Shown piece by piece: positions 5,396 to 56,499 of a stretch of DNA of 64,000 nt. Each line of letters opens with the position of its first letter. Position 1 is the first letter of the stretch. Origin of the DNA: an uncultured Clostridium sp. (lineage in GTDB: Bacteria; Bacillota; Clostridia; Ch29); assembly GCA_964529035.1 (NCBI GenBank), contig CAZGUG010000002.1, forward strand, positions 19,241-83,240, read 5' to 3'. Made by a program: the position numbers and the translations under genes. Under the pieces are notes generated by a model, which was not told where the DNA came from, made no database searches, and worked only from the letters and a program-made list of their open reading frames with translations.

Positions 5396-7099
5396 GTGGG
5401 GGTGGGAAGCGTGCATTATAAAAGCAGAAAAAGACTGGGCAGCATTCTATTGGATATTGGGCGAATAAGCCGGGAGCAGCTGGAGTACGCGCTTAAGCTT
5501 CAAAAAGACAGGGGAGATAAGCTCGGGAAGATTCTTGTGGATGAGGGCATCATATCCGAAGCCGAGGTTATTGAGATATTGGAGTACCAGCTTGGCATAC
5601 CCCATGTTATGTTGGACAAGTACTATATAGACCCGGGAATTGTAAACATAGTGCCTGAGGGTCTGGCCAGAAAATACTGCCTCATACCCATTCAGAAACA
5701 CAGCAATGTTCTTGTGGTGGCAATGAAAGATCCCTTAAATATATATGCGATAGACGAAGTCAAGCTTGTGTCGGATTTGGATATACAGCCGGCTATTGCA
5801 TCGGAGGACGATATTAATTCAGCAATAGAGATGTATTACGGCAAACAGGTAGCCGAGAAAGCTGTGGAGGAATTTACCAGGGAACATAAAATAGAAAGTC
5901 TAATTGAGAATGAGAAACAGCTGCTGGAACAGGTTAACAATGCACCGGTTGTGAGGTTGGTTAATTCAATAATTGAGCAGGCGGTAGTTAACCGGGCCAG
6001 TGATATACATATAGAACCGGGCAGCAGCAAGCTGAGGGTCAGGTTCAGGATAGACGGCCAGCTGCAGGAAATGATGAACGTTTCAATGCAAACCCATGGT
6101 CCGGTTGCAGCCAGGATAAAAATTATGAGCCAACTTAATATAGCCGAAAGAAGAATACCGCAGGACGGAAGGGTAGATCTCGGCATGGGAGGAAAGCACC
6201 TGGACCTTAGGGTATCGGTACTTCCCACAGTTTATGGAGAAAAGATAGTAATAAGGGTCCTGGACAGGGGTAGGTTTTTGTTATCCAGCGAACAGCTGGG
6301 CTTAAGCAGGGAAAATGAAAGGATGTTTAACGAGCTGCTGAAGCTTCCCCATGGTATTGTTCTTGTCACCGGCCCTACCGGGAGCGGTAAAACCACTACG
6401 CTTTATGCCGCCCTGAGGGAACTGAACAAACCTTCGGTTAATATCATAACGCTGGAGGATCCGGTAGAGTACAAACTGGAAGGGATAAACCAAATGCAGA
6501 TTAATCCCAGGGCAGGCCTTACTTTTGCTGTGGGTTTAAGATCGGTATTAAGACAGGACCCAAACATTATAATGGTTGGGGAAATAAGGGACGAAGAGAC
6601 TGCGAATCTGGCGGTCAGGGCAGCTATAACTGGGCACCTGGTATTCTCCACACTGCACACAAACGATGCAGCCAGTTCAGTGGTAAGGCTTATTGACATG
6701 GGTGTTGAGCCATACCTGGCCGCCTCTTCAATAAGGGGAGTAATTTCACAGCGCCTTATAAGGAAGATTTGTCCCGGGTGTAAAGCCGGGTATAAAGCCA
6801 CACAGCAGGGACTGGACATACTTGGATATCCTTCGGACAGCAAGGTGGAGGTATATAAAGGAAAAGGCTGCGGCAGCTGTCATAAAACGGGATACAGGGG
6901 CAGGATTGCGGTTCATGAAATAATGCTTATTACAGAAAAACACAGGGAGCTGATAGGACAGAGGGTTTCTTCCGACAAACTGAAAAAAGTTTCGTGTAAA
7001 GCCGGAATGACAAGCCTTCGGGAAAGCTGTTCTGATCTTGTTTTAAAGGGGATTACAACGATTGATGAAATGTCCAAGGTCGTATATATGCAGGAATAA
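5396..7099 (+). CDS. pilB: Type IV pilus assembly ATPase PilB (GspE family)
   Basis: N-terminal GspE-N/MshEN domain, Walker A GPTGSGKTTTLYAAL, tetracysteine CPGCK...CGSCHKTG. The true start may be GTG 5411. Confidence 0.85.
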   Translation: MGVGSVHYKSRKRLGSILLDIGRISREQLEYALKLQKDRGDKLGKILVDEGIISEAEVIEILEYQLGIPHVMLDKYYIDPGIVNIVPEGLARKYCLIPIQKHSNVLVVAMKDPLNIYAIDEVKLVSDLDIQPAIASEDDINSAIEMYYGKQVAEKAVEEFTREHKIESLIENEKQLLEQVNNAPVVRLVNSIIEQAVVNRASDIHIEPGSSKLRVRFRIDGQLQEMMNVSMQTHGPVAARIKIMSQLNIAERRIPQDGRVDLGMGGKHLDLRVSVLPTVYGEKIVIRVLDRGRFLLSSEQLGLSRENERMFNELLKLPHGIVLVTGPTGSGKTTTLYAALRELNKPSVNIITLEDPVEYKLEGINQMQINPRAGLTFAVGLRSVLRQDPNIIMVGEIRDEETANLAVRAAITGHLVFSTLHTNDAASSVVRLIDMGVEPYLAASSIRGVISQRLIRKICPGCKAGYKATQQGLDILGYPSDSKVEVYKGKGCGSCHKTGYRGRIAVHEIMLITEKHRELIGQRVSSDKLKKVSCKAGMTSLRESCSDLVLKGITTIDEMSKVVYMQE

Positions 7100-7113
7100 A
7101 GGAGTTGTATTTA

Positions 7114-8166
7114 ATGATAGAGGAATTGTTAAGATACGCGATAGAGAATAATGCTTCGGATATTCATATAACAGTGGGCATGCCGCCTACCGCGAGGATT
7201 AATGGAAACCTGATGCCGATAAGCCGGGAAAGGCTTAACACTAGTCATACCCAGGCCATGGTTGAAGAGATACTCAGCAGGGAACACCTTGAAGAGTATA
7301 AGAAAAACGGAGAAATAGACCTTTCGTATTCAGTAAAGGGGCTGGGCAGGTTCAGGGTAAACATATACCGGCAAAGGGGTAGCAGCAGTCTCGCCTTAAG
7401 GGTTGTTGCACTGCACATTCCTTCTATCGGGGAACTTGGCCTGCCGGATTCCGTTAAGGAACTGTCCCGTAAAACGAGGGGGCTGGTACTGGTAACGGGA
7501 TCAAGTGGAAGCGGCAAGTCAACCACCCTTGCAGCAATGATAGATTTGATAAACAAAGAAAGGACATGCCATGTACTGACACTGGAGGACCCAATCGAAT
7601 ACCTGCACAGGCATAATAAGAGCATTGTAAACCAAAGGGAAATCGGTTATGATTCAAAAAACTTTGCAGCAGGCCTAAGGTCCGCCCTCAGACAGGACCC
7701 CGATGTGATACTGGTAGGAGAAATGCGGGACTTAGAGACCATATCCACGGCAATAACAGCAGCTGAAACGGGACACCTGGTTTTATCAACGCTTCATACG
7801 ATTGGTGCCGACAAGACTATAGACCGGATAATTGATGTATTTCCGCCGCACCAGCAGCAGCAAATAAGGGTACAGCTGTCAACGGTGCTGCAGGGGGTAA
7901 TATCACAGCATCTTCTGCTCCGAAAAGATGGTAAAGGAAGGGTGCCGGCAGTGGAGGTCATGGTGGCAACGCCGGCAATAAGGAATCTTATAAGAGAGGG
8001 TAAAACGCACCAGCTAATGACTTCCATACAGACCGGTAGAAAATACGGAATGCAGTCGATGGACGCTGCCCTCAGCAGGCTGTACATGGAGGACATAATC
8101 AGCCATGAAAACGCACTGCTGCACTGCACTAACGAAGAGGTCTTTAGAAGGCTGGCAGACAGCTGA
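7114..8166 (+). CDS. pilT: Twitching-motility / pilus-retraction ATPase PilT
   Basis: Walker A GSSGSGKSTTLAAM and the PilT-typical AIRNLIREGK motif. RBS AAGGAG at 7099-7104 precedes ATG 7114. Confidence 0.85.
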   Translation: MIEELLRYAIENNASDIHITVGMPPTARINGNLMPISRERLNTSHTQAMVEEILSREHLEEYKKNGEIDLSYSVKGLGRFRVNIYRQRGSSSLALRVVALHIPSIGELGLPDSVKELSRKTRGLVLVTGSSGSGKSTTLAAMIDLINKERTCHVLTLEDPIEYLHRHNKSIVNQREIGYDSKNFAAGLRSALRQDPDVILVGEMRDLETISTAITAAETGHLVLSTLHTIGADKTIDRIIDVFPPHQQQQIRVQLSTVLQGVISQHLLLRKDGKGRVPAVEVMVATPAIRNLIREGKTHQLMTSIQTGRKYGMQSMDAALSRLYMEDIISHENALLHCTNEEVFRRLADS

Positions 8167-8203
8167 CTAATGTATATACAGGGGGTATTGGAGGAGAGGA
8201 AGT

Positions 8204-9418
8204 ATGCCTGTGTACCGGTACAGGGCAAAAAAAACCGACGGACGGTATATAACCGGGGTACTAGATGCCAACAGTGAGACTGAAGTGGTACGCATGTTGA
8301 AGCAAAAGAACCAGTATACCGTTAGTATAAAGCAATACGAAGGCAATAGCAGCGGTATTTGGATAAAAAGAACCTTTGGCAAAGTTAAACAAAAAGACCT
8401 GGCGGTTTTCTGCCGTCAGTTCTCTACAGTAATTAATGCTGGGGTTCCCATATTGACAAGCCTTGATATACTCAGAAAACAGACCGAAAATGCAAGGATG
8501 AGGCAGACTGTGGGAGAACTGTACGAAGAAGTGCAAAAAGGTAACAGCCTGTCTTCGGTTATGGCAGTCCATGGGGAAGTTTTTCCTGAACTGCTGGTCA
8601 ACATGATAGAGGCCGGAGAGATTAGCGGTACTCTTGACTGTGTTATGGAAAGGATGGCAGACCATTACGAGAAGGAGTACAGGATAGGCCAGAAGGTGAA
8701 GAACTCACTGGTTTACCCTTCACTTATTGCAGTGGTTGCCCTGTTTGTAATCATAATGCTTGTTGCTGTTGTGCTTCCCACCTTTATAAGCATATTTGAG
8801 GACATGGGAGCGACTCTTCCACTGTCCACCCGGCTGCTTATTTTCTTCAGCAGTGTAATTACAGAATGCTGGCCGATGCTTCTTGCATTGACAGTGGTAT
8901 TATGCATTGTCTTTAAATTATATTCAAAAACAGAAAACGGCAGAGAGCTGATGGATACCTTTAAAATTAAGGCTCCAATAGTGGGCCGTGTCAACAAAAA
9001 GGTGATCACTGCACGTTTTGCAAGAACCCTCGGGGCCCTTACATCAAGCGGCATATCACTGCTGGAAGGCATAGAAGTGGCAAAGAAGGTGGTGGGAAAC
9101 GCGGTATTGCGGAAAGACCTTATCCAAGTGGAGGAGGACGTAAAAAGGGGCAGGGGTTTGGCTGAGCCCTTAAGAAACGTAAAAATATTACATCCCATGC
9201 TGATACAAATGGTTAAGATAGGGGAGGACACCGGTACCCTGGACTATATACTTGTAAAAACTGCGGATATATTCGACGACGAGGTGGAGAGTGCCGTTAC
9301 CAGGATGACCACACTACTGGAGCCCGCCATAATAGTAGTAATGGCGGTGGTGGTTGGGTTTATTGTGGTATCCATCGTGATACCGATGTTCGATATGATG
9401 ACAAATTTGAAGTTTTGA
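8204..9418 (+). CDS. pilC: Type IV pilus platform protein PilC (GspF family)
   Basis: Two GspF repeats, three transmembrane segments, about 400 aa. Confidence 0.85.
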   Translation: MPVYRYRAKKTDGRYITGVLDANSETEVVRMLKQKNQYTVSIKQYEGNSSGIWIKRTFGKVKQKDLAVFCRQFSTVINAGVPILTSLDILRKQTENARMRQTVGELYEEVQKGNSLSSVMAVHGEVFPELLVNMIEAGEISGTLDCVMERMADHYEKEYRIGQKVKNSLVYPSLIAVVALFVIIMLVAVVLPTFISIFEDMGATLPLSTRLLIFFSSVITECWPMLLALTVVLCIVFKLYSKTENGRELMDTFKIKAPIVGRVNKKVITARFARTLGALTSSGISLLEGIEVAKKVVGNAVLRKDLIQVEEDVKRGRGLAEPLRNVKILHPMLIQMVKIGEDTGTLDYILVKTADIFDDEVESAVTRMTTLLEPAIIVVMAVVVGFIVVSIVIPMFDMMTNLKF

Positions 9419-9454
9419 TACACTGTTGTTGGATTGGAAAGGAGTGGATTCAGA

Positions 9455-9859
9455 ATGACTATGTACATAGCCGGGCCTATTAATCAAAAAAAGAAGGATA
9501 AAAGGGGTTTTACTCTGGTAGAACTGATGGCGGTACTGGCGGTGCTGGCAATTATAGCGGCAATAGCAGTGCCGCGGTTTACCGGCACGATAAATGCTGC
9601 CAAGGTCAAAGCCGACGAATCCTCTGCCCTGATAATAGCAAGGGCAGCAGAGCAAAAGTGGCTGGATGACGGAGAAAAAAATAAAAAAGAATATACTTCT
9701 ACCGAATTACATGAAGATGGGTATTTAAGAAAAGCATATACAGCACAGCATCCTGACCACGAAGGCGAAGAATTTGTAGCGATTGTTAATAAAAATGGTG
9801 TGTGTAATGAAGTACACTATGACAGCGCAAGTGGTGATATTGTAGGGGAGAATAAATAG
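9455..9859 (+). CDS. pilA: Type IV pilin (prepilin-type N-terminal cleavage/methylation domain)
   Basis: The leader is ...KKKDKRG followed by FTLVELMAVLAVLAIIAAIAVP, with G-1/F+1 and E+5. Confidence 0.75.
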   Translation: MTMYIAGPINQKKKDKRGFTLVELMAVLAVLAIIAAIAVPRFTGTINAAKVKADESSALIIARAAEQKWLDDGEKNKKEYTSTELHEDGYLRKAYTAQHPDHEGEEFVAIVNKNGVCNEVHYDSASGDIVGENK

Positions 9860-9907
9860 AAGACGGAATTTAAAGTCAAAGTGCGGAATGAAGGAGGATA
9901 GGGTATC

Positions 9908-10654
9908 ATGCAGTATGCGGTTTCCTTTATACTAGGCCTTGTAATTGGCAGTTTTTTAAACGTATGCATACACAGGATTCCTAGTGGAAAATCTGTGGCA
10001 TTTTCCCCTTCCTGCTGCCCGGACTGCGGCGAAAGGATCAGAATGCGGCATATGGTGCCGATTGTAAGCTATATATTACTCGGGGGCAGATGCAGCTGCT
10101 GCAGAATAAAGATTTCACTGAAATATCCACTGGTGGAGCTTTTGACAGGGGTTCTGTTTGTTTTATTGATGTATCGGTTTGGCCCCGGTATGGAGTTTTA
10201 TAAGTACTCATTCCTTTTATCTTTGCTAACTGCTGCAGGGTTTATTGACTTTGAACATCAGATTATTCCGGATATTTTGGTAATTGCCGGTATTACTGCC
10301 GGGACAGGCTTTATGTTTATTGATATGAGACATCCTCATATCTTCTATATAGCGGGAGGTTTGCTGGGAGGCGGTGTACTGCTTGCTGTTGACCTTGTTT
10401 CAAGGGGTGGAATGGGAGGCGGAGATATAAAGCTTATGACGGTGATTGGTTTGTTCCTGGGCTGGCAGAGCACACTGCTGGTTTTGTATCTGGCATTTGT
10501 TACCGGCGGTATGGCCGGCGTGTTGATGCTTGTTTCAGGCAGAAAGAACAGAAAGGATGCAGTCCCCTTTGGACCTTTTATCGGAGGGGCGTCGGTTGCC
10601 GCGGTGTTTTTTGGACATCAATTAACAGCCCGATATCTGTCATTTTTTTACTAA
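9908..10654 (+). CDS. pilD: Prepilin peptidase PilD (A24 family)
   Basis: N-terminal zinc-binding CPDC...CSCC, a polytopic membrane protein, and a catalytic Asp in GGGDIKLM. Confidence 0.85.
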   Translation: MQYAVSFILGLVIGSFLNVCIHRIPSGKSVAFSPSCCPDCGERIRMRHMVPIVSYILLGGRCSCCRIKISLKYPLVELLTGVLFVLLMYRFGPGMEFYKYSFLLSLLTAAGFIDFEHQIIPDILVIAGITAGTGFMFIDMRHPHIFYIAGGLLGGGVLLAVDLVSRGGMGGGDIKLMTVIGLFLGWQSTLLVLYLAFVTGGMAGVLMLVSGRKNRKDAVPFGPFIGGASVAAVFFGHQLTARYLSFFY

Positions 10655-10660
10655 TACGGG

Positions 10661-11122
10661 GTGATTATGATGAAAACAAACCGCAGCACCGGACTGACTA
10701 TATTGGAACTGCTGACGGTTATGCTCATTATATCAATAGCTTCAGCGGTAGCGGTACCAGCGGTCAATGCGGCATTGGAAAGGGCCGCCGGGAATGCGGC
10801 ATTAAGAGAGCTGGTTACAGATTTGAGGTACGCACAGCAGATGGCCCTCTCAGATGGCAGTAATTATTATATTACGTTCAATAAAAGCATGCAGACATAT
10901 ACAATAAGCGTAGCGGGACAATTTGATCAGGAAATTATTAAGCAGGTGACGTTACCGGATGGTATTAAGCTGCTTGGGACAAATTTCGCAAACAATAAAC
11001 TTTACTACACTGATTTGGGATCTCCATCGGCGGGCGGCAGGATAGAGCTTTCGGATAGAAAGGGTAAGGTAATAAAAATTACAGTTCTTCCTGCTACCGG
11101 AAGGATCAGGGTGTATGAATGA
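10661..11122 (+). CDS. Minor pilin / pseudopilin (FimT/GspH-like)
   Basis: Class III signal: G followed by LTILELLTVMLII. Confidence 0.6.
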   Translation: MIMMKTNRSTGLTILELLTVMLIISIASAVAVPAVNAALERAAGNAALRELVTDLRYAQQMALSDGSNYYITFNKSMQTYTISVAGQFDQEIIKQVTLPDGIKLLGTNFANNKLYYTDLGSPSAGGRIELSDRKGKVIKITVLPATGRIRVYE

Positions 11123-11132
11123 GGTGGGTTAT

Positions 11133-11900
11133 ATGGCTTTCAATAGAAAGGGTAACGGAGGTTTTTCGCTGGTGGAGGTGTTGGTGGCGCTGGCAATACT
11201 GGGTATTGTAATAACTCCTGTTATAGGTGTTTTTGCGGCGGCATCCAGGAGCAACCAGAAAAGCTTAAGCAACACCCGGGCCCTTACAGTGGCAAGGGAT
11301 ATTATGGACAGGATTAAAGCCGGTGATATTAATAAATCAAACAGCAGTCAGGAGATAGCAAGCTACAAGGCACAGTACGGCGTTGAAGTATACCTGCCGG
11401 AAATCGAAACCTGTGAAAACAACACACTGGGTATGCTTAATGTATATGTTGCACCGCAGACCGGCAGCGACCCGCAGACAGAAGGTATAATGCTGGCGTC
11501 CTATGCAACCAATGTCTTTACTGACGAGATTGATACAACTCATTACGGACATGGGTCAGGCGAAGACAAACAGGACCCGCCCGGAGGCGAAAAAGGCAAG
11601 GAACCGGACGAACTCTGGAGCGCCTACTACAAATACGCAGAAACGATAACAACTGTAGCTCCCTATACGAAACCCACCATTTTGGTACTTCCCTACATTC
11701 TGTTTGACAAGGTATCCGAAATAGTGACTATGGAACAGGCAGTAAAGGCAAGCCATACCATTTTGCTTACTGCCAGGAAAATTCCACCTAACAACAAACT
11801 GACCTGGGGTTACCTGGTAAACGAAGTGGAAAGCTATTATGAATTCAGGTTAAACCCCTATGATTACAAGAAATACCGGCCGTATGGGCCGCCAGGCTGA
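11133..11900 (+). CDS. Minor pilin (PilV-like)
   Basis: MAFNRKGNG followed by GFSLVEVLVALAILGIV. Confidence 0.6.
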   Translation: MAFNRKGNGGFSLVEVLVALAILGIVITPVIGVFAAASRSNQKSLSNTRALTVARDIMDRIKAGDINKSNSSQEIASYKAQYGVEVYLPEIETCENNTLGMLNVYVAPQTGSDPQTEGIMLASYATNVFTDEIDTTHYGHGSGEDKQDPPGGEKGKEPDELWSAYYKYAETITTVAPYTKPTILVLPYILFDKVSEIVTMEQAVKASHTILLTARKIPPNNKLTWGYLVNEVESYYEFRLNPYDYKKYRPYGPPG

Positions 11901-11937
11901 ACCGGATGCATACAGAATATAAAGGGTGGATTTGGAA

Positions 11938-12405
11938 ATGAAGCATTTCAATAACAAGCAGGGCTTTTCCATAATTGAACTGCTCATGGCCCTTGGTTTG
12001 ACAGGAATTGTAATAGCCGCAGTTTTCATGGTCTATTATTCCGGAACAAAGGCGTGGAACAGGGCCGAAAACCAGGTTGAGGTTCAGCAGAACCTGAGGA
12101 TAGCAATGGATGTTTTAAGTACAGAGATAAGAAAGGCCGATTACTTTGAGATTCTGAAGAACCAGAGGGAGATTGTACTGGTATACGGTAATGGAAATAC
12201 AAAATCCTATAAATTCCACCCGGCTTCCGGCGAAATCAGGATTTCCCAAAGTAATGCAGCGGTGGCTATGCATATTGAGGATTTAAAGTTTTCATACCGA
12301 AACGGGCTTATTAAAATACATATAACAACAAAGGCAATGGAAGGTATAGGGCAAAAGGAGTATACCTTCAGCATTAATGCCAGGGGGAAGATACATGATG
12401 GTTAA
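11938..12405 (+). CDS. Minor pilin (PilW-like)
   Basis: MKHFNNKQG followed by FSIIELLMALGLTGIV. Confidence 0.6.
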   Translation: MKHFNNKQGFSIIELLMALGLTGIVIAAVFMVYYSGTKAWNRAENQVEVQQNLRIAMDVLSTEIRKADYFEILKNQREIVLVYGNGNTKSYKFHPASGEIRISQSNAAVAMHIEDLKFSYRNGLIKIHITTKAMEGIGQKEYTFSINARGKIHDG

Positions 12406-12922
12406 AGATAAGCGCGGGTCGGTTCTTGTAATGGTTATGCTGTATACCCTGGTTTTAATCATACTGGGCACTTCAATCCTGGGTGTGGCCGCCAGCGAGT
12501 ACATAATGGAGATGGCACATAGAAAAAGGGTTAAATCGTATTATATAGCCGAAGCAGGAATAGAAAAAGCCATATATCATATTACGCAAATGAACATCAT
12601 AAACCCGGAAACAATAAGGGGGGCCCGGTGGGATATGGGAGCGGAGGACATTGGGCTTGTTGAACCAGGTGCCCGGGGAGACTTTACTGTGACTGTGAAA
12701 GAGGCAGCACTTTATGATGTTATATATACCGACGAGGGCGAAGACAAAAAGGTACATAAACGGATATTCGATATAGTGATTAGGTCACTGGCACACTATA
12801 ACGGAACTCCGGCGGTGGTGGAAGCCCATGTTCTGGCGGAGGATTACGAGGAAAAATCAACACAAAACAAGGTTCAGATATATCACTGGAGACAGGTAGG
12901 GAGGGTAGAGGATGAAGATTAA
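12395..12922 (+). CDS. PilX-like minor pilin / pilus assembly protein
   Basis: MMVKDKRG followed by SVLVMVMLYTLVLIILGTSILGVAASEY. Confidence 0.5.
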   Translation: MMVKDKRGSVLVMVMLYTLVLIILGTSILGVAASEYIMEMAHRKRVKSYYIAEAGIEKAIYHITQMNIINPETIRGARWDMGAEDIGLVEPGARGDFTVTVKEAALYDVIYTDEGEDKKVHKRIFDIVIRSLAHYNGTPAVVEAHVLAEDYEEKSTQNKVQIYHWRQVGRVEDED

Positions 12923-13184
12923 AAACTATATGGAGGATGTTGTTGTTCATTATCTGTTCAATATAATCAAGGACAAGGATGATATCTGCAAATGTGATAA
13001 ATGTCTCAATGATATTGCGGCTATTGCACTGAACAATCTAACACCCCACTATGTGGTGTCAGAAAAGGGCGAGCTGTATTCAAAGGTACTGAACATGTCT
13101 ATACAGTTCGAAGCCGATGTGACAACGGCAATATTGGAAGCTATTGACAAGGTCTCTAAAAATCCAAGGCACTCAAAGGAATAG
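12912..13184 (+). CDS. comFB: ComFB-family protein (late competence development protein ComFB-like, 4-Cys)
   Basis: 90 aa with CKCDKCLNDIAAIALNNLTPHYV, matching the ComFB (PF10719) signature CxC..C and the conserved LPP.Y segment. It sits inside the pilus operon. RBS GGGAGGG at 12898-12904. Confidence 0.55.
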   Translation: MKIKNYMEDVVVHYLFNIIKDKDDICKCDKCLNDIAAIALNNLTPHYVVSEKGELYSKVLNMSIQFEADVTTAILEAIDKVSKNPRHSKE

Positions 13185-13197
13185 TTGAGGTGAAAAC

Positions 13198-14703
13198 ATG
13201 CCGGTCTTCCGTAACAGGGTATTGGCTTTAGACATCGGAAGCAGGAGAATCAAGTGGCTATTGTACCACACAGCCGGGAAAAGGATGGTTGTGATAGAAC
13301 GGGGGATAAAAGAGATACCTCCGGGTTGGGTAAAAAACGGCAGATTAACTGACACTGAGGGAGTCAGTACCAAACTTAAGGAAATACTGGAAGACATTAA
13401 AGGAAAAGTGACAAAGGTGTCACTGTCTTTGGCGTGTCCTGAAATGATTGTAAGGACGGTGGAGCTACCGGAATTAAGTCCAAAGGAACTGAAAAACGCG
13501 GTCAGGTACGAAGTGGGACAGCTAATCCCGACAGGTGCCGGAGAATATATATCAGACTACAGTATACTGGAATATATAAAGCGGGATGGTGCCAGGTACG
13601 TAAGAATACTTTTGGCTGTCATGCCGGTATCTATAATGGGGGAATATTCAGCATTGTTCAAGGGCCTGGGCTTGACACCCCATCTGTTTGATTTTAATGG
13701 CAACTGTGCATCACGGGTAATTAACCTTATGTATCATACCAAGGCAGATAAAAATGTGGCTGTTGTGGATATCGGAGCGGCCTTAACAACCATAACCATA
13801 ATAGAGGATGGAAACCCGGTATTCACAAGGTTTGTCCGGTTTCAGAACTCCAGTGAAGAAAATAGCGGGCCGGAAAACATGCAGAGTATAATGCCACCGG
13901 TTGAGCAGCTATTAAAGGACGTATATCGCACGATTGAGTTTTATAAATCAATAAGCAAAAAAACCATAGATTCGATTGTGCTGGCGGGTGGCGGGAGCTG
14001 CCGAAAAGGTATCAGCGACTATCTGGCGCAGGGTTTGGGGATTAAAAGCATTCGGATGGAAGCACAGCAGCTCCCTGTGTCATTCAACGCTGACTTTTCA
14101 TCGAAGCACTTGGCAGAATTCATTAATGTACTGGGACTGGCCGTCACGCAGGCAAACGGCAAGCGAAAGACATTAAACCTGCTTCCCGAAAAATACAGGA
14201 GCGCTGAAAGAAAAGTCAAAACTGCAAAGGCGATGGCAGTAATTTTAGCCGTTGTGGTTTTGACCGGCTCATTGGTACTGCCTTTCTTTTATGTTGAAAA
14301 GATAAAGAGAGAGGCCACTGACTTGCAGAATATGCTTGACAGAAAGGATACAATAACGGAATACCAAAATAAGCGTGAAGAACTGGCAGGGCTTGCATCC
14401 GAACGGCGAAGGCTGGTCAATATGCTTGAAACGGCAGGAAAAGACTGGCCCCGAATATTTGTGGAAATAGGCAGGCAAACCCCCGGCGGGATAGTCCTTG
14501 CTTCAATGGATTACCGGGACCCGGAAGGGTTAACTATAACCGGAGAAGCCGCTGACTTCAGAACCGCAGCCCTGTTCGCTGTTAATCTGCAAAGATTAGA
14601 CGAAATATCGTCCGCCGAACCTTTAAGCATTTCATTATCCGAGAATAATACCTGTCTGTTTGAAATAAGGTGTATTGTCGGGGGTGAAGCGGATGAAAAC
14701 TGA
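13198..14703 (+). CDS. pilM: PilM-PilN fusion protein (actin-like ATPase PilM joined to the transmembrane PilN domain)
   Basis: The N-terminal ~330 aa carry the PilM/FtsA-like ASKHA fold (LALDIGSRRIKW). Residues ~335-500 hold a single transmembrane segment (AMAVILAVVVLTGSLVLPFFYV) plus a PilN-like periplasmic domain. Confidence 0.8.
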   Translation: MPVFRNRVLALDIGSRRIKWLLYHTAGKRMVVIERGIKEIPPGWVKNGRLTDTEGVSTKLKEILEDIKGKVTKVSLSLACPEMIVRTVELPELSPKELKNAVRYEVGQLIPTGAGEYISDYSILEYIKRDGARYVRILLAVMPVSIMGEYSALFKGLGLTPHLFDFNGNCASRVINLMYHTKADKNVAVVDIGAALTTITIIEDGNPVFTRFVRFQNSSEENSGPENMQSIMPPVEQLLKDVYRTIEFYKSISKKTIDSIVLAGGGSCRKGISDYLAQGLGIKSIRMEAQQLPVSFNADFSSKHLAEFINVLGLAVTQANGKRKTLNLLPEKYRSAERKVKTAKAMAVILAVVVLTGSLVLPFFYVEKIKREATDLQNMLDRKDTITEYQNKREELAGLASERRRLVNMLETAGKDWPRIFVEIGRQTPGGIVLASMDYRDPEGLTITGEAADFRTAALFAVNLQRLDEISSAEPLSISLSENNTCLFEIRCIVGGEADEN

Positions 14704-15349
14704 ACTTGGTAAATGGAAAAAACACATGGTACTGGCAACCGCGATTGCAGCCTTATTATTCGTGTATCACCAGTATTATCTTTCACCGCTGCTTACGGAA
14801 TATTCAGCGATAAGCGAATCGGTGCGCGAAAGTGAAGAAAAGCTGGACAGCCTTATGGAAACCGAGCGGGAAATAGACTTGCTGCTGGCTGATACAGAAG
14901 AACTGCAGTCGTATATTAACGCCCTGGAAATTCTGGTACCATCCAACTGCCGGGTTCCTGAAATTGTAACGCAGTTGGAAGCCTGTTCCTACAAATCCGG
15001 TACTGTACTGCAAAATATTGTGTTTGATTCCTTTGTTCTGCCTGACGGTGAAGAAAAGCAGCAGAGTGGTTATATTCAGCTTCCGATGCATATTTTCATT
15101 ACGGGCAGCTATGAGAATATAATATTTTTTCTGCAGGAAATTGAAAACTCGGACAGGCTATACAATGTTACGGGGTTCAGTCTGTTCAATAATGGATCAG
15201 GAGCCGGCGGCAGGTTGGGAATGAGTATTGATTTGTGCGCTTACGCGCTGCAGGCCGGCGGAAAACCGAAAGAAACGTCTGCAAGCTATGACTTTGTGGA
15301 AGAGACAAGCGGCAGGGACAACCCTTTCATACCGGTTGACAGCGAATAG
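14693..15349 (+). CDS. pilO: PilO-like pilus assembly protein
   Basis: N-terminal transmembrane segment, coiled-coil and a C-terminal periplasmic domain. The start overlaps the end of pilMN. Confidence 0.6.
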   Translation: MKTELGKWKKHMVLATAIAALLFVYHQYYLSPLLTEYSAISESVRESEEKLDSLMETEREIDLLLADTEELQSYINALEILVPSNCRVPEIVTQLEACSYKSGTVLQNIVFDSFVLPDGEEKQQSGYIQLPMHIFITGSYENIIFFLQEIENSDRLYNVTGFSLFNNGSGAGGRLGMSIDLCAYALQAGGKPKETSASYDFVEETSGRDNPFIPVDSE

Positions 15350-29382: not shown

Positions 29383-30324
29383 ATGGATGCATATATAGGT
29401 TTTGATACCAGCTGTTATACCACCTCCATGGCGATGGTGGATGATAACGGGAAACTCCTGTCCGACAAAAGAAACGTCCTCCAGGTAAAACGGGGCGAAA
29501 AAGGCCTAAGACAGTCGGAAGCGGTATTCCAGCATATTCGAAACTTAAACGGATTATCCGATGAACTGAAGGTACTGGCAGGCAGGTTTGATGTAAAAGC
29601 GTTAGCCGCTTCGGTTAAACCCAGGCCGTTGCCGGAGTCCTATATGCCGGTTTTTACGGTGGGGGAAAGCACGGCAAAGGCTGCCGCAGCTGCAGCGGGG
29701 ATACCCTTTTATGCCACCACCCACCAGGAAAGCCACCTTATGGCGGGGCTGTGGTCGGCAGGAGGGCCAAAGGCAGATCGGTTTTTAACGGTGCACCTTT
29801 CGGGAGGCACCACCGAACTATTGATTACACAAAAAAAAGACCCGGATTTCGAAATCAGTATAATAGGCGGTACCCGGGATATAAGTGCAGGTCAGTTTGT
29901 GGACAGGATAGGCGTGGCCATGGGACTGGATTTTCCATGCGGACCGCAGTTGGAAGAGTTGGCGGGTAGAGCAATAGGTACAGCCCCTGCTTTGGAAATC
30001 CCCTGCAGCAGCAAAGGCTGCACGTTGAGTTTTTCGGGGCCAGAAACCCACGCCAGGCGGCTGCTTCAAACCGGCGCGGATGAAGCCCAGGTTGCTTTTT
30101 TGGTACTCAAATGTATAGCGAGGGGCCTTGAAAAAATTATTTCAGAGGCCTGCCGGATTAATAATATTGGAGAAGTGCTGATGGTGGGCGGTGTATCGGC
30201 GAACAAAATGATTAAAAGTCACCTTGAAGAAAAACTTGACTGCAGGCAGTACTTCCCGCATCCAAAATACTGTAGCGACAGTGGGGTGGGTACGGCTGTT
30301 ATAGCAAGAGAAAAGAATATGTAA
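29383..30324 (+). CDS. Kae1/TsaD-family (peptidase M22, ASKHA fold) paralog
   Basis: IGFDTSCYTTS compared with Kae1 IETSCDDT; THQESH compared with the HxEGH metal site; C-terminal GGVSAN adenosine motif. Confidence 0.5.
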   Translation: MDAYIGFDTSCYTTSMAMVDDNGKLLSDKRNVLQVKRGEKGLRQSEAVFQHIRNLNGLSDELKVLAGRFDVKALAASVKPRPLPESYMPVFTVGESTAKAAAAAAGIPFYATTHQESHLMAGLWSAGGPKADRFLTVHLSGGTTELLITQKKDPDFEISIIGGTRDISAGQFVDRIGVAMGLDFPCGPQLEELAGRAIGTAPALEIPCSSKGCTLSFSGPETHARRLLQTGADEAQVAFLVLKCIARGLEKIISEACRINNIGEVLMVGGVSANKMIKSHLEEKLDCRQYFPHPKYCSDSGVGTAVIAREKNM

Positions 30325-32683: not shown

Positions 32684-33127
32684 TTGAACTTTTTTTCTCG
32701 GATATTTGACAACAGGGTTCTTGTTGTTGCACTGGTTTCCTGGACCATAGCACAGGTGGCCAAGGTAGTCATTGATATTTCGATAAACAAAAAGTTTGAT
32801 TTGAAACGTTTTGTGGGCTCGGGAGGAATGCCCAGCTCACATTCTGCATTTGTGATGGCCTTGTCAACCGGTATCGGCAGACTTCAGGGCTGGGATTCTC
32901 CTCTGTTTGCAATAGCCATATCCTATGCCTTTGTGGTAATGTATGATGCAGCCGGAGTTAGGAGAGCGGCCGGCAAACAGGCAGAAATAATTAACATAAT
33001 AATAATGGATGTCATTGAACACAAAGGGCTCAAGGAAGAGAGATTGAAGGAGTTAATAGGCCATACGCCGATAGAGGTTATTGCAGGTGGCATTCTAGGT
33101 ATAATAACGGCAAATATAATGCTTTAG
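32684..33127 (+). CDS. Divergent PAP2-family (DUF212) membrane protein
   Basis: GGMPSSHSA is the acid-phosphatase-like motif; three to four transmembrane segments. Confidence 0.65.
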   Translation: MNFFSRIFDNRVLVVALVSWTIAQVAKVVIDISINKKFDLKRFVGSGGMPSSHSAFVMALSTGIGRLQGWDSPLFAIAISYAFVVMYDAAGVRRAAGKQAEIINIIIMDVIEHKGLKEERLKELIGHTPIEVIAGGILGIITANIML

Positions 33128-33133
33128 CGGAGT

Positions 33134-33162
33134 TTGAAGGTAGGATGCCGTCATGTTATAAT
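33134..33162 (+). promoter_or_regulatory. Consensus sigma-A promoter with extended -10 driving the non-coding region
   Basis: TTGAAG (33134-33139), a 17-nt spacer, then TGtTATAAT (33154-33162). Confidence 0.55.
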
Positions 33163-33169
33163 ATGTTCA

Positions 33170-33765
33170 TAGTTGGTGGTGCAGTATTCTAGTCAGACGT
33201 TTCGCTTCTGAAGGCGGGGCTAAAAATCCGTCAAAAGGCACATCGATGAAGTTCCTTGTGTTGGCTTCTGACGCCCAGTTGGGGGCTTTCTCAGGGAGTA
33301 AAGAGGTGGGGGCGATCTGCAACGGCATGCAGGCGTTGACCCTCCCTCTGCGGAGACCCGAAACCTGATATCAGGTTGGGTAAAAACCTGCAGATAAAAC
33401 CTGCAGCGTAGCCTGCCTTGAGTGAGATAGGCGGATGATTGTCAGGCTAATTCCGAAGGGCCCTTCGGAAGATGCCAATGCTTTCGAAACCTATTTTGCA
33501 AAAGAGGCTAAGAAACGGGACCGATGTCGAGGAAAACTCCTAGACTGTTCCAACGGAGGCATATTGGGGATTAGGGTGCGGACTAAGTGGTAATCCAGCC
33601 CTATCGATGGTAACACGATAGAGACGGGTTTAAAGGGAAACCGCTAACCTGGCGACAGGATAGTATCCGCCTGGGAAAGCCTGCTGGACCTAAGCCGCAA
33701 AATTTACTCATTATGCTGCCACCGCGAACTTTTGCTGATAGTTTATACTATCAGCTTTTTAATTG
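33170..33765 (+). ncRNA. ole: Candidate OLE (ornate large extremophilic) RNA
   Basis: A ~700-nt ORF-free, GC-balanced interval with many perfect local hairpins (aacctgatatcaggtt, ttccgaagggcccttcggaa, gctgatagt..actatcagc). It has its own promoter and terminator. Its position between ispA/PAP2 and a small four-TM membrane gene plus dxs-tlyA-nadK-argR-recN matches the published ole-oapA neighbourhood as I recall it. Confidence 0.7.
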
Positions 33766-33771
33766 TTTTTT
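33734..33771 (+). terminator. Rho-independent terminator at the 3' end of the OLE candidate
   Basis: 9-bp stem gctgatagt / actatcagc around a 4-nt loop, followed by tttttaattgtttttt. Confidence 0.7.
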
Positions 33772-33829
33772 ATCCCTGCTGTTAATGCTATAATTTTAGT
33801 ATATGTAATAATACTAATTATATAATCCA

Positions 33830-34450
33830 GTGCGAAAAGAGAGGGAGTATGAATTGAGTACAAAGGAACAAAAAGAAAAGGCAAAAGCAGGCAGATGGGT
33901 AGTGTTTATTACGCTGTGGACGTTTTTGCTTGCGCTTTCCTTCAGCTTTCTGTCCGAGACGGTGGTTAGAAACCTAAAACTCGGCATTGCTTATATCATT
34001 CTTATGGCAATAATAATAATAGGCATAATTTTTGATATAATAGGCATAGCCGTAACTGCGTCAGACGAGAAACCGCTTAACGGTATGGCCGCCCAGAAAA
34101 TTCCGGGTGCCAGGGAGGCGGTGGAGCTTCATAAAAATGCCGGTGCAGTTTCAAATTTTTGTAACGATGTAATAGGTGATATATGCGGGATTATCAGCGG
34201 AGCTGCAGGCGCCGTGATAGTTACAAGGTTTGTAATGCTTTATCCCAATATAAAGGGTGCAACGGCCGGGATACTATTAAGCAGCCTTATTGCGGCGGTT
34301 ACCGTTGGAGGTAAGGCTGTTGGAAAAAATATTGCCATAAAAAAAGCAAGTGAAATCACTTTCAGGGTGGGAACGATTTTAAATCTGTTTCATAAAAGGA
34401 CCAGCATAAAAGTGGTTGGTAATGACAAAAAAAATGGTGGAAAGCGGTGA
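33830..34450 (+). CDS. oapA: Small four-TM membrane protein, candidate OLE-associated protein A
   Basis: About 200 aa, four predicted transmembrane helices, conserved acidic residues. It lies directly downstream of the OLE candidate and upstream of dxs. The likely start is TTG 33854 after RBS GAGAGGGAG. Confidence 0.6.
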   Translation: MRKEREYELSTKEQKEKAKAGRWVVFITLWTFLLALSFSFLSETVVRNLKLGIAYIILMAIIIIGIIFDIIGIAVTASDEKPLNGMAAQKIPGAREAVELHKNAGAVSNFCNDVIGDICGIISGAAGAVIVTRFVMLYPNIKGATAGILLSSLIAAVTVGGKAVGKNIAIKKASEITFRVGTILNLFHKRTSIKVVGNDKKNGGKR

Positions 34451-55611: not shown

Positions 55612-56499
55612 ATGAACGAATTGCTGGAAAAATACATAGGTTATATAGCGGAAGTTAGAAAGCTCTCATCCAACACCGTTGAATCCTACGGCAGAGATAT
55701 AAGACAGTACATAGAGTATATCCGGGGAAAAAACATATCAAGCCTAAAGAACACAAACAAGACGACAGTAATAACATACCTGCTGTATCTGCAAAAAAAC
55801 GGAAGGGCCACGTCCACCATATCAAGAAACCTTGCTTCGATAAGGGCTTTTTACCAGTATATGGCTTCCGAAAGGATAATTGACAAGGATCCTACAGTGG
55901 ACTTGGAATCGCCAAGGGTAGAAAAAAGGCTTCCGGTAATTCTGACCAACAAAGAGGTGGAAATGCTGCTGGAACAACCCGACTGCAGTGATGCAAAGGG
56001 GACCAGGGACAAATCCATGCTGGAGCTTCTGTATGCCACAGGTATTAGGGTATCCGAACTTGTTGCCCTTGACTTAAACGATATAAACATGGAACTGGGT
56101 TACATAAAATGCTCAAAAAGTAATGAAAAGGAAAGGATTATTCCCGTTGGAACAATAGCACTGGAAATAATGGAAAGATACATAAACCGGGTGAGGCCGG
56201 GACTTGTAAGTGACAAATCCGAAAAGGCACTTTATGTGAACTATAAGGGAGAGAGACTTACAAGACAGGGTTTTTGGAAAATAATTAAGGGATACAAAAA
56301 CAAAGCCAACATAAATAAAGCCATAACGCCGCATACACTGCGGCATTCCTTTGCTGCCCACCTTTTGCAAAATGGAGCCGATTTGAAATCAGTACAGGAA
56401 ATGCTGGGCCACTCCGACATCTCCACAACACAGATTTATACGCAGATAACCAAAAACAGGATTAAGGAAGTATACAATAAAGCACATCCAAGGGCATAA
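55612..56499 (+). CDS. xerD: Tyrosine recombinase XerD
   Basis: R..HxxR..Y catalytic set (HTLRHSFA...HSDISTTQIYTQ), 295 aa. Confidence 0.85.
   Translation: MNELLEKYIGYIAEVRKLSSNTVESYGRDIRQYIEYIRGKNISSLKNTNKTTVITYLLYLQKNGRATSTISRNLASIRAFYQYMASERIIDKDPTVDLESPRVEKRLPVILTNKEVEMLLEQPDCSDAKGTRDKSMLELLYATGIRVSELVALDLNDINMELGYIKCSKSNEKERIIPVGTIALEIMERYINRVRPGLVSDKSEKALYVNYKGERLTRQGFWKIIKGYKNKANINKAITPHTLRHSFAAHLLQNGADLKSVQEMLGHSDISTTQIYTQITKNRIKEVYNKAHPRA

Follow-up and report, generated by a model that had tools for sequence, protein, structure and literature searches.

The ole locus

The window (the whole 64-kb stretch of DNA analysed) carries the gene order nusB-tsaD-like-xseAB-ispA-DUF212-ole-oapA-dxs-tlyA-nadK-argR-recN. 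An earlier reading made from the letters alone, here called the sequence-only reading, had named the succession from ispA to recN as the one expected for ole, and that succession is what we find. With the window tiled by its longest non-overlapping ORFs, the widest gap, 702 nt, is the one upstream of oapA (the runner-up is 345 nt). The features at the locus are as follows:

32684-33127, + strand: gene for a DUF212 / divergent PAP2 (YuiD-like) membrane protein (PF02681, E = 4e-52).
33134-33162, + strand: σA-type promoter of ole, with a -35 element TTGAAG at 33134-33139, a 17-nt spacer and an extended -10 element TGtTATAAT at 33154-33162.
33160-33738, + strand: match to OLE RNA (RF01071), called from the covariance model, covariation and minimum free energy; the predicted primary transcript is ~33169-33761, ~593 nt.
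33734-33760, + strand: 3′ hairpin and intrinsic terminator, GCUGAUAG-UUUAUA-CUAUCAGC and then UUUUU.
33786-33794, + strand: putative separate promoter of oapA-dxs, an extended -10 element TGcTATAAT with no good -35, followed by conserved AGTATATGTA.
33854-34450, + strand: oapA, 198 aa, with a TTG start 6 nt past AGAGGGAG; predicted four-helix membrane protein, the OLE RNA partner.

Identification of the RNA

OLE RNA is a well-known, membrane-associated RNA and among the largest conserved bacterial non-coding RNAs; each well-resolved example adds comparative data. A candidate OLE RNA had been proposed for this gap, together with a covariance-model search as the check. The Rfam model RF01071 (OLE) matches 33160-33738 on the + strand at full length, with 501.3 bits and E ~5e-145; the gathering score is 50 bits, and the span matched is 1-616 of the model, not truncated. 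This is the sole Rfam match of the entire window, and the Rfam scan found no other RNA family in the interval, only a chance match to RMST_1 (E = 0.68). The interval originally drawn, 33128-33830, holds for the RNA at ~33169-33761, while its remainder, 33762-33830, belongs to the oapA promoter/leader region.

Class-wide, conservation exceeds 97% at ~25% of positions. The window copy is identical to the model consensus at 240 of the 249 upper-case (highly conserved) positions, 96% kept, and every invariant column of a 68-sequence OLE alignment is present. It has 147 of the 159 model pairs, 132 of them canonical. The interval folds with a minimum free energy of -226 kcal/mol, whereas shuffles give -189 ± 6.7 (z = -5.5), and perfect palindromes can be read at 33362-33377 (AACCTGATATCAGGTT) and 33451-33470 (TTCCGAAGGGCCCTTCGGAA), in line with the richness in palindromes and hairpins remarked on before; a repeat search for inverted repeats with 12-nt arms gave three imperfect ones only. 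The same locus, identical, occurs on several independent metagenome assemblies (JGI, ENA and Logan contigs). We regard it as nearly certain that a functional ole gene occupies the interval and that its product is an RNA of the OLE (ornate, large, extremophilic) class, ~593 nt long.

RNA architecture

The elements of the RNA, named by helix (P), junction (J) and loop (L), are:

33175-33180, + strand: P1 5′ strand GGUGGU, pairing with GCCACC at 33718-33723 and closing the whole RNA.
33189-33192, + strand: CUAG palindrome of the P2 region; invariant columns C30, A32, G33 and T34.
33213-33232, + strand: P4 hairpin, loop CUAAAAAU at 33219-33226; helix 99.5% paired.
33242-33251, + strand: P4a/J4a-5, with the AUCGAU palindrome and GAUGAAG; nearly invariant columns.
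33252-33298, + strand: P5, a long hairpin with loop GCCCA at 33273-33277.
33302-33349, + strand: P6/P6.1, loop ACGGCA at 33322-33327; AAnGGCAU is invariant in the 68-sequence alignment.
33352-33356, + strand: J6/7 GGAGA; invariant columns G193, G194, A195 and G196.
33357-33380, + strand: P7, shortened to 24 nt; the median of 68 OLE RNAs is 36.
33388-33406, + strand: P8, minimal, CUGCAG-AUAAAAC-CUGCAG, a 6-bp hairpin of 19 nt.
33415-33508, + strand: P9, a long arm of 94 nt (median 98) with self-complementary tip loop GGCC at 33459-33462.
33558-33717, + strand: 3′ domain P12-P15, including P13 at 33601-33621 and the P14.1 loop GCGA at 33652-33655.

Protein sites. One of two partial OapA-binding palindromes has been mapped to the CUAG of the P2 region (PMC12265935, citing Block et al. 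2011). AUCGAU is assigned as the second OapA site, and GAUGAAG as one k-turn strand of the OapC/YbxF site (PMC12265935, PMC9723947, PMC12286853); in the cryo-EM structure the second k-turn strand is the GGAGA of J6/7 (PMC12286853). The OapB site has been defined as the P13 GNRA loop plus a one-nucleotide bulge (PMC7936274), which is matched here by the loop GUAA at 33610-33613 together with the bulged G33606. The predicted OapB site and the predicted OapC k-turn strands are present in the window RNA.

Dimer loops. The P4 loop CUAAAAAU is invariant in 68 sequences, and the A-rich L4 loop forms the A-A bridge of the OLE homodimer (PMC12286853, PMC12265935). The P6 loop has a GGC with complementarity to GCC in the loop of P5; L5/L6 loop pairing is an intermolecular bridge (PMC12286853). 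The P9 tip (L9.3), which has a kissing-loop role (PMC12286853, PMC12265935), carries its GGCC inside the perfect palindrome 33451-33470; GGCC is found at this tip in 53 of 61 homologues, and the few other tips found are also self-complementary (AGCT, GATC, CCGG and GCGC). All three predicted dimer elements, the A-rich L4, L5/L6 and the self-complementary L9.3, are present.

Shortened helices. P7 has a 21-nt deletion relative to the Rfam model. P8 is the shortest of 68 sequences, in a form common to the three nearest genomes (L005-L007). There are several non-canonical pairs in P5 and P9. Both the shortening of P7/P8 and non-canonical pairs are variation of a kind already described for the class (PMC11332333). 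As read from its letters, the RNA is a compact OLE in which P8 is minimal and P7 short but P9, the dimer loops and the predicted OapB and OapC sites are kept. Such a compact natural form agrees with the case made in the literature, from cryo-EM, that OLE can do without P7 and P8.

Promoters and transcription units

A consensus scan matches the ole promoter at 10 of 12 consensus positions, plus the upstream TG, and in L005-L007 the -35 element and the extended -10 (CATGTTATAAT) are invariant while the spacer diverges. The terminator consists of a 9-bp stem (33734-33755) followed by TTTTT, its stem invariant and its loop variable in L005-L007. The sequence-only reading had placed a consensus σA promoter at the start of the interval and an intrinsic terminator at its end, and both stand up to comparison. 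Transcription is predicted to start at ~33169, ~7 nt past the extended -10 and 5-6 nt ahead of P1, and would end at the hairpin and U-tract near 33760. Given a start at a conserved promoter and an end at a hairpin with U-tract, OLE in the window's clade is probably a stand-alone transcript. A proximal OLE promoter is already documented for H. halodurans (PMC3413148), and the one here is no new feature of the class.

The oapA-dxs genes probably have their own extended -10 promoter at 33786-33794. The consensus scan did not call it, its -35 being poor; the stretch ATGCTATAATTT(T/A)AGT(A/G)TATGTA is kept in the window and L005-L007 save for two variable positions, and its flanks diverge.

The structured region might instead be a cis-acting 5′ leader, such as a riboswitch or attenuator, that controls oapA-dxs and is no independent RNA. 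Its position directly upstream of oapA on the same strand fits this, as does the read-through co-transcription seen in H. halodurans (PMC3413148, PMC12265935), and some two thirds of OLE loci have a short oapA spacer (25-130 nt) without the CUGAUAG hairpin and are compatible with co-transcription. Here, however, the RNA is followed by a terminator hairpin with U5 and oapA is preceded by a conserved extended -10; moreover, the full-length match is to a family for which experiments have shown a stable and abundant RNA that acts in trans as part of an RNP (PMC3413148), and no other Rfam family matches. We consider a leader very improbable and continue with an independent OLE RNA.

Covariation, selection and coding potential

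Across 68 OLE homologues 85.2% of pair cells are paired, whereas slid controls reach 42-47%. Both sides change in 125 of the 153 pairs, and none of 500 shuffles reached the observed values. Because the pairing was carried over from the window row to a MAFFT alignment, the variable tips (P7, P8 and the P9 tip) score poorly. Five of the 6 pairs of P1 have both-side changes, with 95% of cells paired. P5 is 92.6% paired, with double changes in 15 of its 20 pairs and three U-U mismatches in the window copy. The helices of the 3′ domain are 87-99.8% paired, with many double changes.

A decaying relic (pseudogene) that has lost its function is less probable still than a leader. Rare defective ole genes are on record (PMC11332333), and the shortened P7 and P8 and the 15 non-canonical pairs among 147 could be taken as signs of decay. 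Against this, 96% of conserved nucleotides are kept, the protein-site and dimer-loop motifs are all intact, oapA is intact with its DxxxD motif, and promoter and terminator are conserved. The compact P7/P8 form is also retained in three relatives that have diverged to only 68-77% identity in OapA, a sign of purifying selection.

No ORF of at least 60 aa overlaps 33128-33830 on either strand, as had been stated beforehand; the two longest reach 53 aa (33167-33328, - strand) and 52 aa (33435-33593, + strand), and in the three closest relatives, L005-L007, neither keeps its frame or extent. That the interval encodes one or more small proteins is the least credible of the alternatives, since the four overlapping ORFs of 40-53 aa on which it would draw are not kept in frame, position or length in L005-L007 or the other 64 homologues, and substitutions track base-pairing, not codon periodicity.

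The OapA protein

The oapA gene starts 115 nt downstream of the Rfam OLE match. A protein search gave 4590 OapA homologues, and OLE lies immediately upstream of oapA in 75 of the 80 genome loci located via the OapA protein. OapA proteins are ~200 aa long, with four TM helices and a basic C-terminus in the cytoplasm. The product here has four hydrophobic segments (TM helices) and a basic C-terminus, with 12 K/R in the last 60 aa. Its DxxxD motif, D105-V-I-G-D109, is invariant in 22 homologues; this motif distinguishes OapA from CNNM domains (PMC11332333).

At default thresholds OapA has no matches in Pfam, NCBIfam or PDB sequences. In a relaxed Pfam scan it matches PF01595 (CNNM) with E = 0.0013 and 18.9 bits, below the Pfam threshold of 28.4, and 20 of the 22 homologues match the same family. 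An AF2 model shows long helices at moderate confidence (pLDDT 74), and its top Foldseek matches are the MtCorB entries 7M1T and 7M1U (probability 1.00, query-normalised TM-score 0.45-0.53). For H. halodurans OapA, too, 7M1U has been reported as the best match. In sequence and model the window protein resembles the TM domain of the CNNM-MpfA Mg2+ transporters (CorB, CorC), and it differs from these proteins in having no CBS or CorC-HlyC domains. OLE species usually carry no more than one MpfA. The small membrane gene downstream of the RNA is, as had been supposed, oapA, its product having DxxxD, four TM helices and, as modelled, a CorB-like fold.

Gene neighbourhood and host

The PAP2-family (DUF212) gene ahead of the RNA had been suggested as a possible lineage-specific partner of OLE, and this we reject. 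Of 50 comparable OLE loci, 24 have DUF212 interposed between ispA and OLE, with several families of Clostridia represented. DUF212 is also present in two clusters that have neither ole nor oapA, in Lutispora thermophila and one other genome (L085 and L086), where it sits between ispA and dxs with spacers of 12-22 nt. From its presence in both kinds of locus we conclude that DUF212 is part of the syntenic backbone. In the literature searched, older OLE papers aside, there was no link of OLE RNA to DUF212, PAP2 or YuiD. The pair ole-oapA behaves as a two-gene module in a cluster that is otherwise fixed: between DUF212 (or ispA) and dxs it is either there or missing.

Pfam scans of ~50 ORFs of the 64-kb window gave no KOW/YbzG-like (oapB) or L7Ae-like (oapC/ybxF) protein. 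These two genes are normally located elsewhere in the genome than ole, and occur in ~60% (oapB, ybzG) and ~45% (oapC, ybxF) of OLE species.

The nearest loci are in Clostridia/Bacillota metagenome-assembled genomes, and the best GTDB species representatives are only 68-77% identical in OapA. The window encodes spoIIIA, spoIVB, spo0A and spoIIM, and also carries pilus and shikimate genes. The host is an uncultured, spore-forming, Clostridia-like bacterium, presumably anaerobic to judge from its relatives. OLE hosts are Bacillota, typically anaerobic or extremophilic and often spore-forming.

Proposed function

By analogy with work in H. halodurans, C. acetobutylicum and C. botulinum (PMC12265935, PMC12286853, PMC7936274, PMC9723947, PMC3413148), the window RNA would fold into P1-P15 and homodimerise through the A-rich L4, through L5/L6 and through the self-complementary GGCC at the tip of P9. 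OapA dimers would bind the CUAG and AUCGAU palindromes and tether the RNA to the membrane. OapB would be recruited at the P13 GNRA loop and bulge, and OapC/YbxF at the k-turn. Together they would form an RNP, which may help cells to withstand alcohol, cold and excess Mg2+ and to live on poor carbon sources. For this OLE we infer the transcript ends, the abundance and the membrane localisation.

Comparison with known systems

Full-length OLE. The RNAs of H. halodurans, C. acetobutylicum and C. botulinum are like the window copy in P1-P15 architecture and conserved nucleotides, in the dimer loops (L4 CUAAAAAU, L5 GCCCA, L6 GGCA and L9.3 GGCC), in the P13 GNRA loop with its bulge and in the k-turn strands. 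They are alike too in their proximal promoter, with its -10 only a few nt ahead of P1, and in having oapA next, in an ispA...dxs-tlyA-nadK-argR-recN context. The window copy differs in its P8, cut to a 6-bp hairpin, and in a P7 ~12 nt under the median. It differs also in the terminator hairpin after the RNA and the probable extended -10 of oapA itself, whereas complementation in H. halodurans supplied ole and oapA jointly from the promoter they share.

OLE variant 1. The TANB77-type variant has P7, P8 and P9 shortened and often lacks the OapB site (Fernando & Breaker 2024, PMC11332333). The window copy shares the shortened P7 and P8. Assignment to this variant is ruled out by the near full-length P9 (94 nt) and the intact predicted OapB site; in addition the Rfam score is very high, and the host genome is not reduced, with sporulation, pilus and shikimate genes in the window.

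Other large RNAs. GOLLD, ROOL and raiA/ModT are likewise conserved non-coding RNAs of large size and elaborate structure, and their function is at most partly known. They have no sequence or structure match to the window RNA, occur in different genomic contexts and are without an OapA partner.

The window RNA is an ordinary OLE example. The class is already known, with ~2,800 representatives catalogued (PMC11332333); the find adds one member and leaves existing knowledge of the class unchanged.

A conserved hairpin after OLE

The stem CUGAUAG/CUAUCAG of the terminator hairpin is conserved in sequence in 24 of 80 genome loci, from different genera, with variable loop and flanks. In these loci it occurs once, always just after OLE; Alkaliphilus, Anaerosolibacter and Caloranaerobacter are among the cultured relatives that have it. 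At least five U follow in only about half of the copies. Stem variants are G.U pairs on the OLE (+) strand, which disfavours reading the palindrome as an operator at the DNA level.

Within the window the terminator arms resemble those of P13 (GAUAG/CUAUC). Judged by eye from the 68-sequence alignment the likeness is coincidental, since P13 covaries in other species and the terminator stem does not.

It is a tentative idea, which we hold to be rather doubtful, that (G)CUGAUAG-loop-CUAUCAG(C) directly after P1 has a role beyond that of a terminator and forms, in a broad group of Clostridia, a 3′ module of OLE that is conserved in sequence but absent from the annotation; the hairpin may conceivably have been described already in the older OLE literature. 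It might serve in 3′-end protection, processing or protein binding. It may also accompany an uncoupling of ole and oapA transcription, as suggested by the probable extended -10 promoter of oapA in the window's clade. The conserved 3′ hairpin after OLE is worth checking.

Identity of the RNA

At 702 nt, the interval 33128-33830 exceeds every other gap between the longest non-overlapping ORFs of the window; the second-largest measures 345 nt. From the sequence-only reading came the proposal that it encodes an OLE RNA, partly on the grounds that it holds no ORF of at least 60 aa and is rich in local palindromes. Both observations stand: the longest overlapping ORFs have 53 and 52 aa, and perfect palindromes are read at 33362-33377 and 33451-33470. 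The predicted transcript has a minimum free energy of -226 kcal/mol, versus -189 +/- 6.7 for dinucleotide shuffles (z = -5.5).

The Rfam OLE model (RF01071; gathering score, 50 bits) matches 33160-33738 (+) with 501.3 bits (E ~5e-145), in an untruncated alignment spanning model positions 1-616. It is the sole Rfam family above threshold across the whole 64 kb, and a permissive Rfam scan of the interval gave no further credible family. In the parsed cmscan alignment 240/249 upper-case consensus nucleotides are identical, and 147 of the 159 model base pairs are present, 132 of these being canonical; the absent pairs are located in helices P7 and P8, both of which have deletions. The OLE reading is correct, and the locus is a genuine ole-oapA, the gene pair for the RNA and its membrane protein partner, and is apparently functional. 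It adds a further member to a well-known class with ~2,800 catalogued representatives (PMC11332333), and leaves the mechanism of that class no easier to test than it is in existing model systems. Two minor leads emerge: the conservation of a hairpin 3′ of the RNA, and the presence of ole-oapA in some clusters and its absence from others.

Covariation

Through an alignment of OapA homologues, 80 loci were retrieved from GTDB species genomes, and in 75/80 an OLE RNA (nhmmer, window RNA as query) lies directly upstream of the oapA homologue. The 68 full-length OLE sequences were aligned with MAFFT, and the Rfam structure of the window RNA plus a 6-bp P1 was projected onto the alignment. Standard pairs fill 85.2% of pair cells, versus 42-47% after shifting partners by 1-3 columns; both sides change in 125/153 pairs, and the observed pairing values were reached by 0/500 shuffles. 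The weakly paired helices are variable tips (P7, P8 and the P9 tip), regions whose length variants MAFFT cannot align.

Each of the three nearest genomes (L005-L007, whose OapA is 68-77% identical to that of the window) carries an 86-90-aa ORF on the OLE minus strand, at RNA positions ~61-330; the window counterpart is interrupted, the longest ORF there being 53 aa. OLE has a GC content of 51% versus 46% for the window, and these ORFs are consistent with chance occurrence in a GC-richer structured RNA.

Sequence motifs and compact shape

At the level of sequence, every functional motif known from the literature is present, with sites as defined in PMC12265935, PMC12286853, PMC9723947 and PMC7936274.

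Motifs of the window OLE RNA
L4 loop: A-rich, CUAAAAAU, invariant in 68 sequences
L5 loop: GCCCA
L6 loop: ACGGCA
L9.3 loop: GGCC, self-complementary; GGCC in 53/61 homologues
Putative OapA sites: CUAG and AUCGAU palindromes, assigned from the literature
k-turn strands: GAUGAAG and GGAGA
Putative OapB site: P13 with bulged G33606 and GNRA loop GUAA, plus the P14.1 GCGA loop

The few non-GGCC cores of L9.3 found among the 61 homologues are likewise self-complementary.

The RNA is compact, with a P1-to-P1 distance of 549 nt versus a median of 573 among 68 OLE RNAs. P8 (CUGCAG-AUAAAAC-CUGCAG, 19 nt) is the shortest of the 68 and common to the window and L005-L007, while P7 measures 24 nt (median 36) and P9 94 nt (median 98). 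Variation from J6/7 through P8 is common among OLE RNAs (PMC12265935). In variant 1, the TANB77-type class described by Fernando & Breaker, P7, P8 and P9 are all short and the OapB site is frequently missing; the window RNA retains P9 and the putative OapB site, so assignment to variant 1 was rejected in favour of a compact full-length type.

OapA

Partner gene of the OLE RNA
33854-34450, +, oapA: 198 aa, TTG start, ribosome binding site AGAGGGAG

The protein has four hydrophobic segments, a basic C-terminus and an invariant DxxxD motif at D105-D109, the feature separating OapA from CNNM domains (PMC11332333). It matches PF01595 only below threshold (E = 0.0013), 20/22 homologues also match this family, and a search of PDB sequences gave no match. 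The best PDB fold matches of its AlphaFold2 model (pLDDT 74) are MtCorB 7M1T and 7M1U, with probability 1.00; 7M1U is likewise the top reported match for H. halodurans OapA.

Transcription signals and the 3′ hairpin

The proposed sigma-A promoter and intrinsic terminator were both recovered: TTGAAG-17-nt-TATAAT preceded by TG, at 33134-33162 (10/12 positions), and a terminator-like hairpin at 33734-33755 followed by TTTTT. In L005-L007 the -35 TTG(A/T)AG and CATGTTATAAT are invariant and the intervening spacer varies; the terminator stem is likewise invariant and its loop variable. Experiments have established such a proximal promoter for OLE in H. halodurans (PMC3413148), and the Rfam OLE consensus starts with "uaau", a -10 remnant at a fixed distance before P1; a proximal promoter is therefore typical of the class. 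We infer an RNA of ~593 nt, starting near 33169 and ending near 33760.

Between the terminator and oapA, at 33786-33810, the block ATGCTATAATTT(T/A)AGT(A/G)TATGTA is conserved in the window and L005-L007, only two positions varying among these four genomes.

Candidate signal upstream of oapA
33786-33794, +, extended -10 without a good -35

This suggests that, in the window's clade, oapA-dxs may have its own promoter, separate from that of ole.

The motif CTGATAG-N3-12-CTATCAG occurs once in the window, versus 0.01 occurrences expected by chance, and exactly once per locus in 20 genome loci, always 5-20 nt 3′ of the P1 3′ strand. With G.U variants allowed, the hairpin is found in 24/80 loci from several Clostridia families, again a single time in each locus and nowhere but after OLE.

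Occurrences of the hairpin (G)CUGAUAG / CUAUCAG(C)
Window: 33734-33760, +
Other loci: L005-L007, L009-L012, L017, L018, L021, L023, L024, L030, L036, L037
Further loci: L039, L046, L048-L050, L056, L060, L064, L079

The hairpin lies outside the Rfam OLE model. Its stem sequence is conserved, its loop and flanks are not, and stem variants are G.U on the OLE strand, with one compensatory change (L018). A U-run of at least 5 follows in only ~11/24 loci, and the median OLE-to-oapA spacer is 150 nt with the hairpin versus 84 nt without. The word "terminator" is absent from the three OLE papers searched, which did not include those of 2006 and 2011.

In two Anaeromonas loci (L021, 5848-5920; L024, 5855-5925) a second AAAGCTGA(T/A)AG copy comes after the hairpin 3′ arm and its U/A-rich tail; pairing of the two copies could form an alternative, larger hairpin. 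Three loci of Acetobacterium and Eubacteriaceae (L044, L047, L072) have a different post-OLE hairpin, GGAAUCAC...GUGAUUCC, conserved among them and followed by a U-run. Conservation of the OLE terminator stem within single clades may be a general feature.

Gene order and DUF212

Annotation of the window agrees with the proposed order from ispA through recN, with ole upstream of a small membrane gene and dxs. The genes run nusB, TsaD-like, xseA, xseB, ispA (FPP synthase), DUF212 (divergent PAP2), ole, oapA and dxs, then tlyA-like, nadK, argR, recN, spoIVB and spo0A. The suggestion that the PAP2-family gene is a lineage-specific partner of the RNA did not hold. DUF212 lies between ispA and OLE in 24/50 OLE loci with ispA at most 1.5 kb upstream, including those of Alkaliphilus, Anaerosolibacter, Marinisporobacter, Natronincola, Caloramator and Petromonas; Bacilli and Tissierellia-type loci are without it at this position. 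It is also found in two clusters of order nusB...xseB-ispA-DUF212-dxs-tlyA-nadK-argR-recN, where DUF212 and dxs are only 12-22 nt apart and neither OLE (nhmmer) nor oapA was found.

Clusters without ole or oapA
L085, 5001-5470: Lutispora thermophila, FQZS01000011.1
L086, 5001-5460: JAJGRE010000001.1

These arrangements place DUF212 in the fixed syntenic backbone, and ole-oapA behaves as a two-gene module that some clusters have, and others lack, between DUF212 and dxs. A literature search, outside which the neighbour review of Breaker et al. 2023 fell, gave no link of OLE RNA with DUF212, PAP2 or YuiD.

The canonical cluster has folD near the nusB-xseA position. Here a 313-aa TsaD/Kae1-like protein (PF00814) is encoded between nusB and xseA, at 29383-30324; the position is filled in every close relative, as it is in L085 and L086.

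Host and remainder of the window

Metagenome contigs from JGI, ENA and Logan, up to 187 kb long, carry an identical locus; no close species-level representative of the host was found in the genome collection. The window also encodes type IV pilus, shikimate, efp, spoIIIA, spoIVB, spo0A and spoIIM genes, and from this content the host is a spore-forming member of Clostridia. The type IV pilus/competence-like cluster (5396-15349) comprises two T2SSE ATPases, T2SSF, a prepilin with N-methylation motif, a prepilin peptidase, ComFB and a PilM-PilN fusion. A tyrosine recombinase of the phage-integrase family with an N-terminal SAM-like domain (55612-56499) adjoins deoB-like and pyrimidine nucleoside phosphorylase genes, and is probably XerD-like rather than part of a mobile element.
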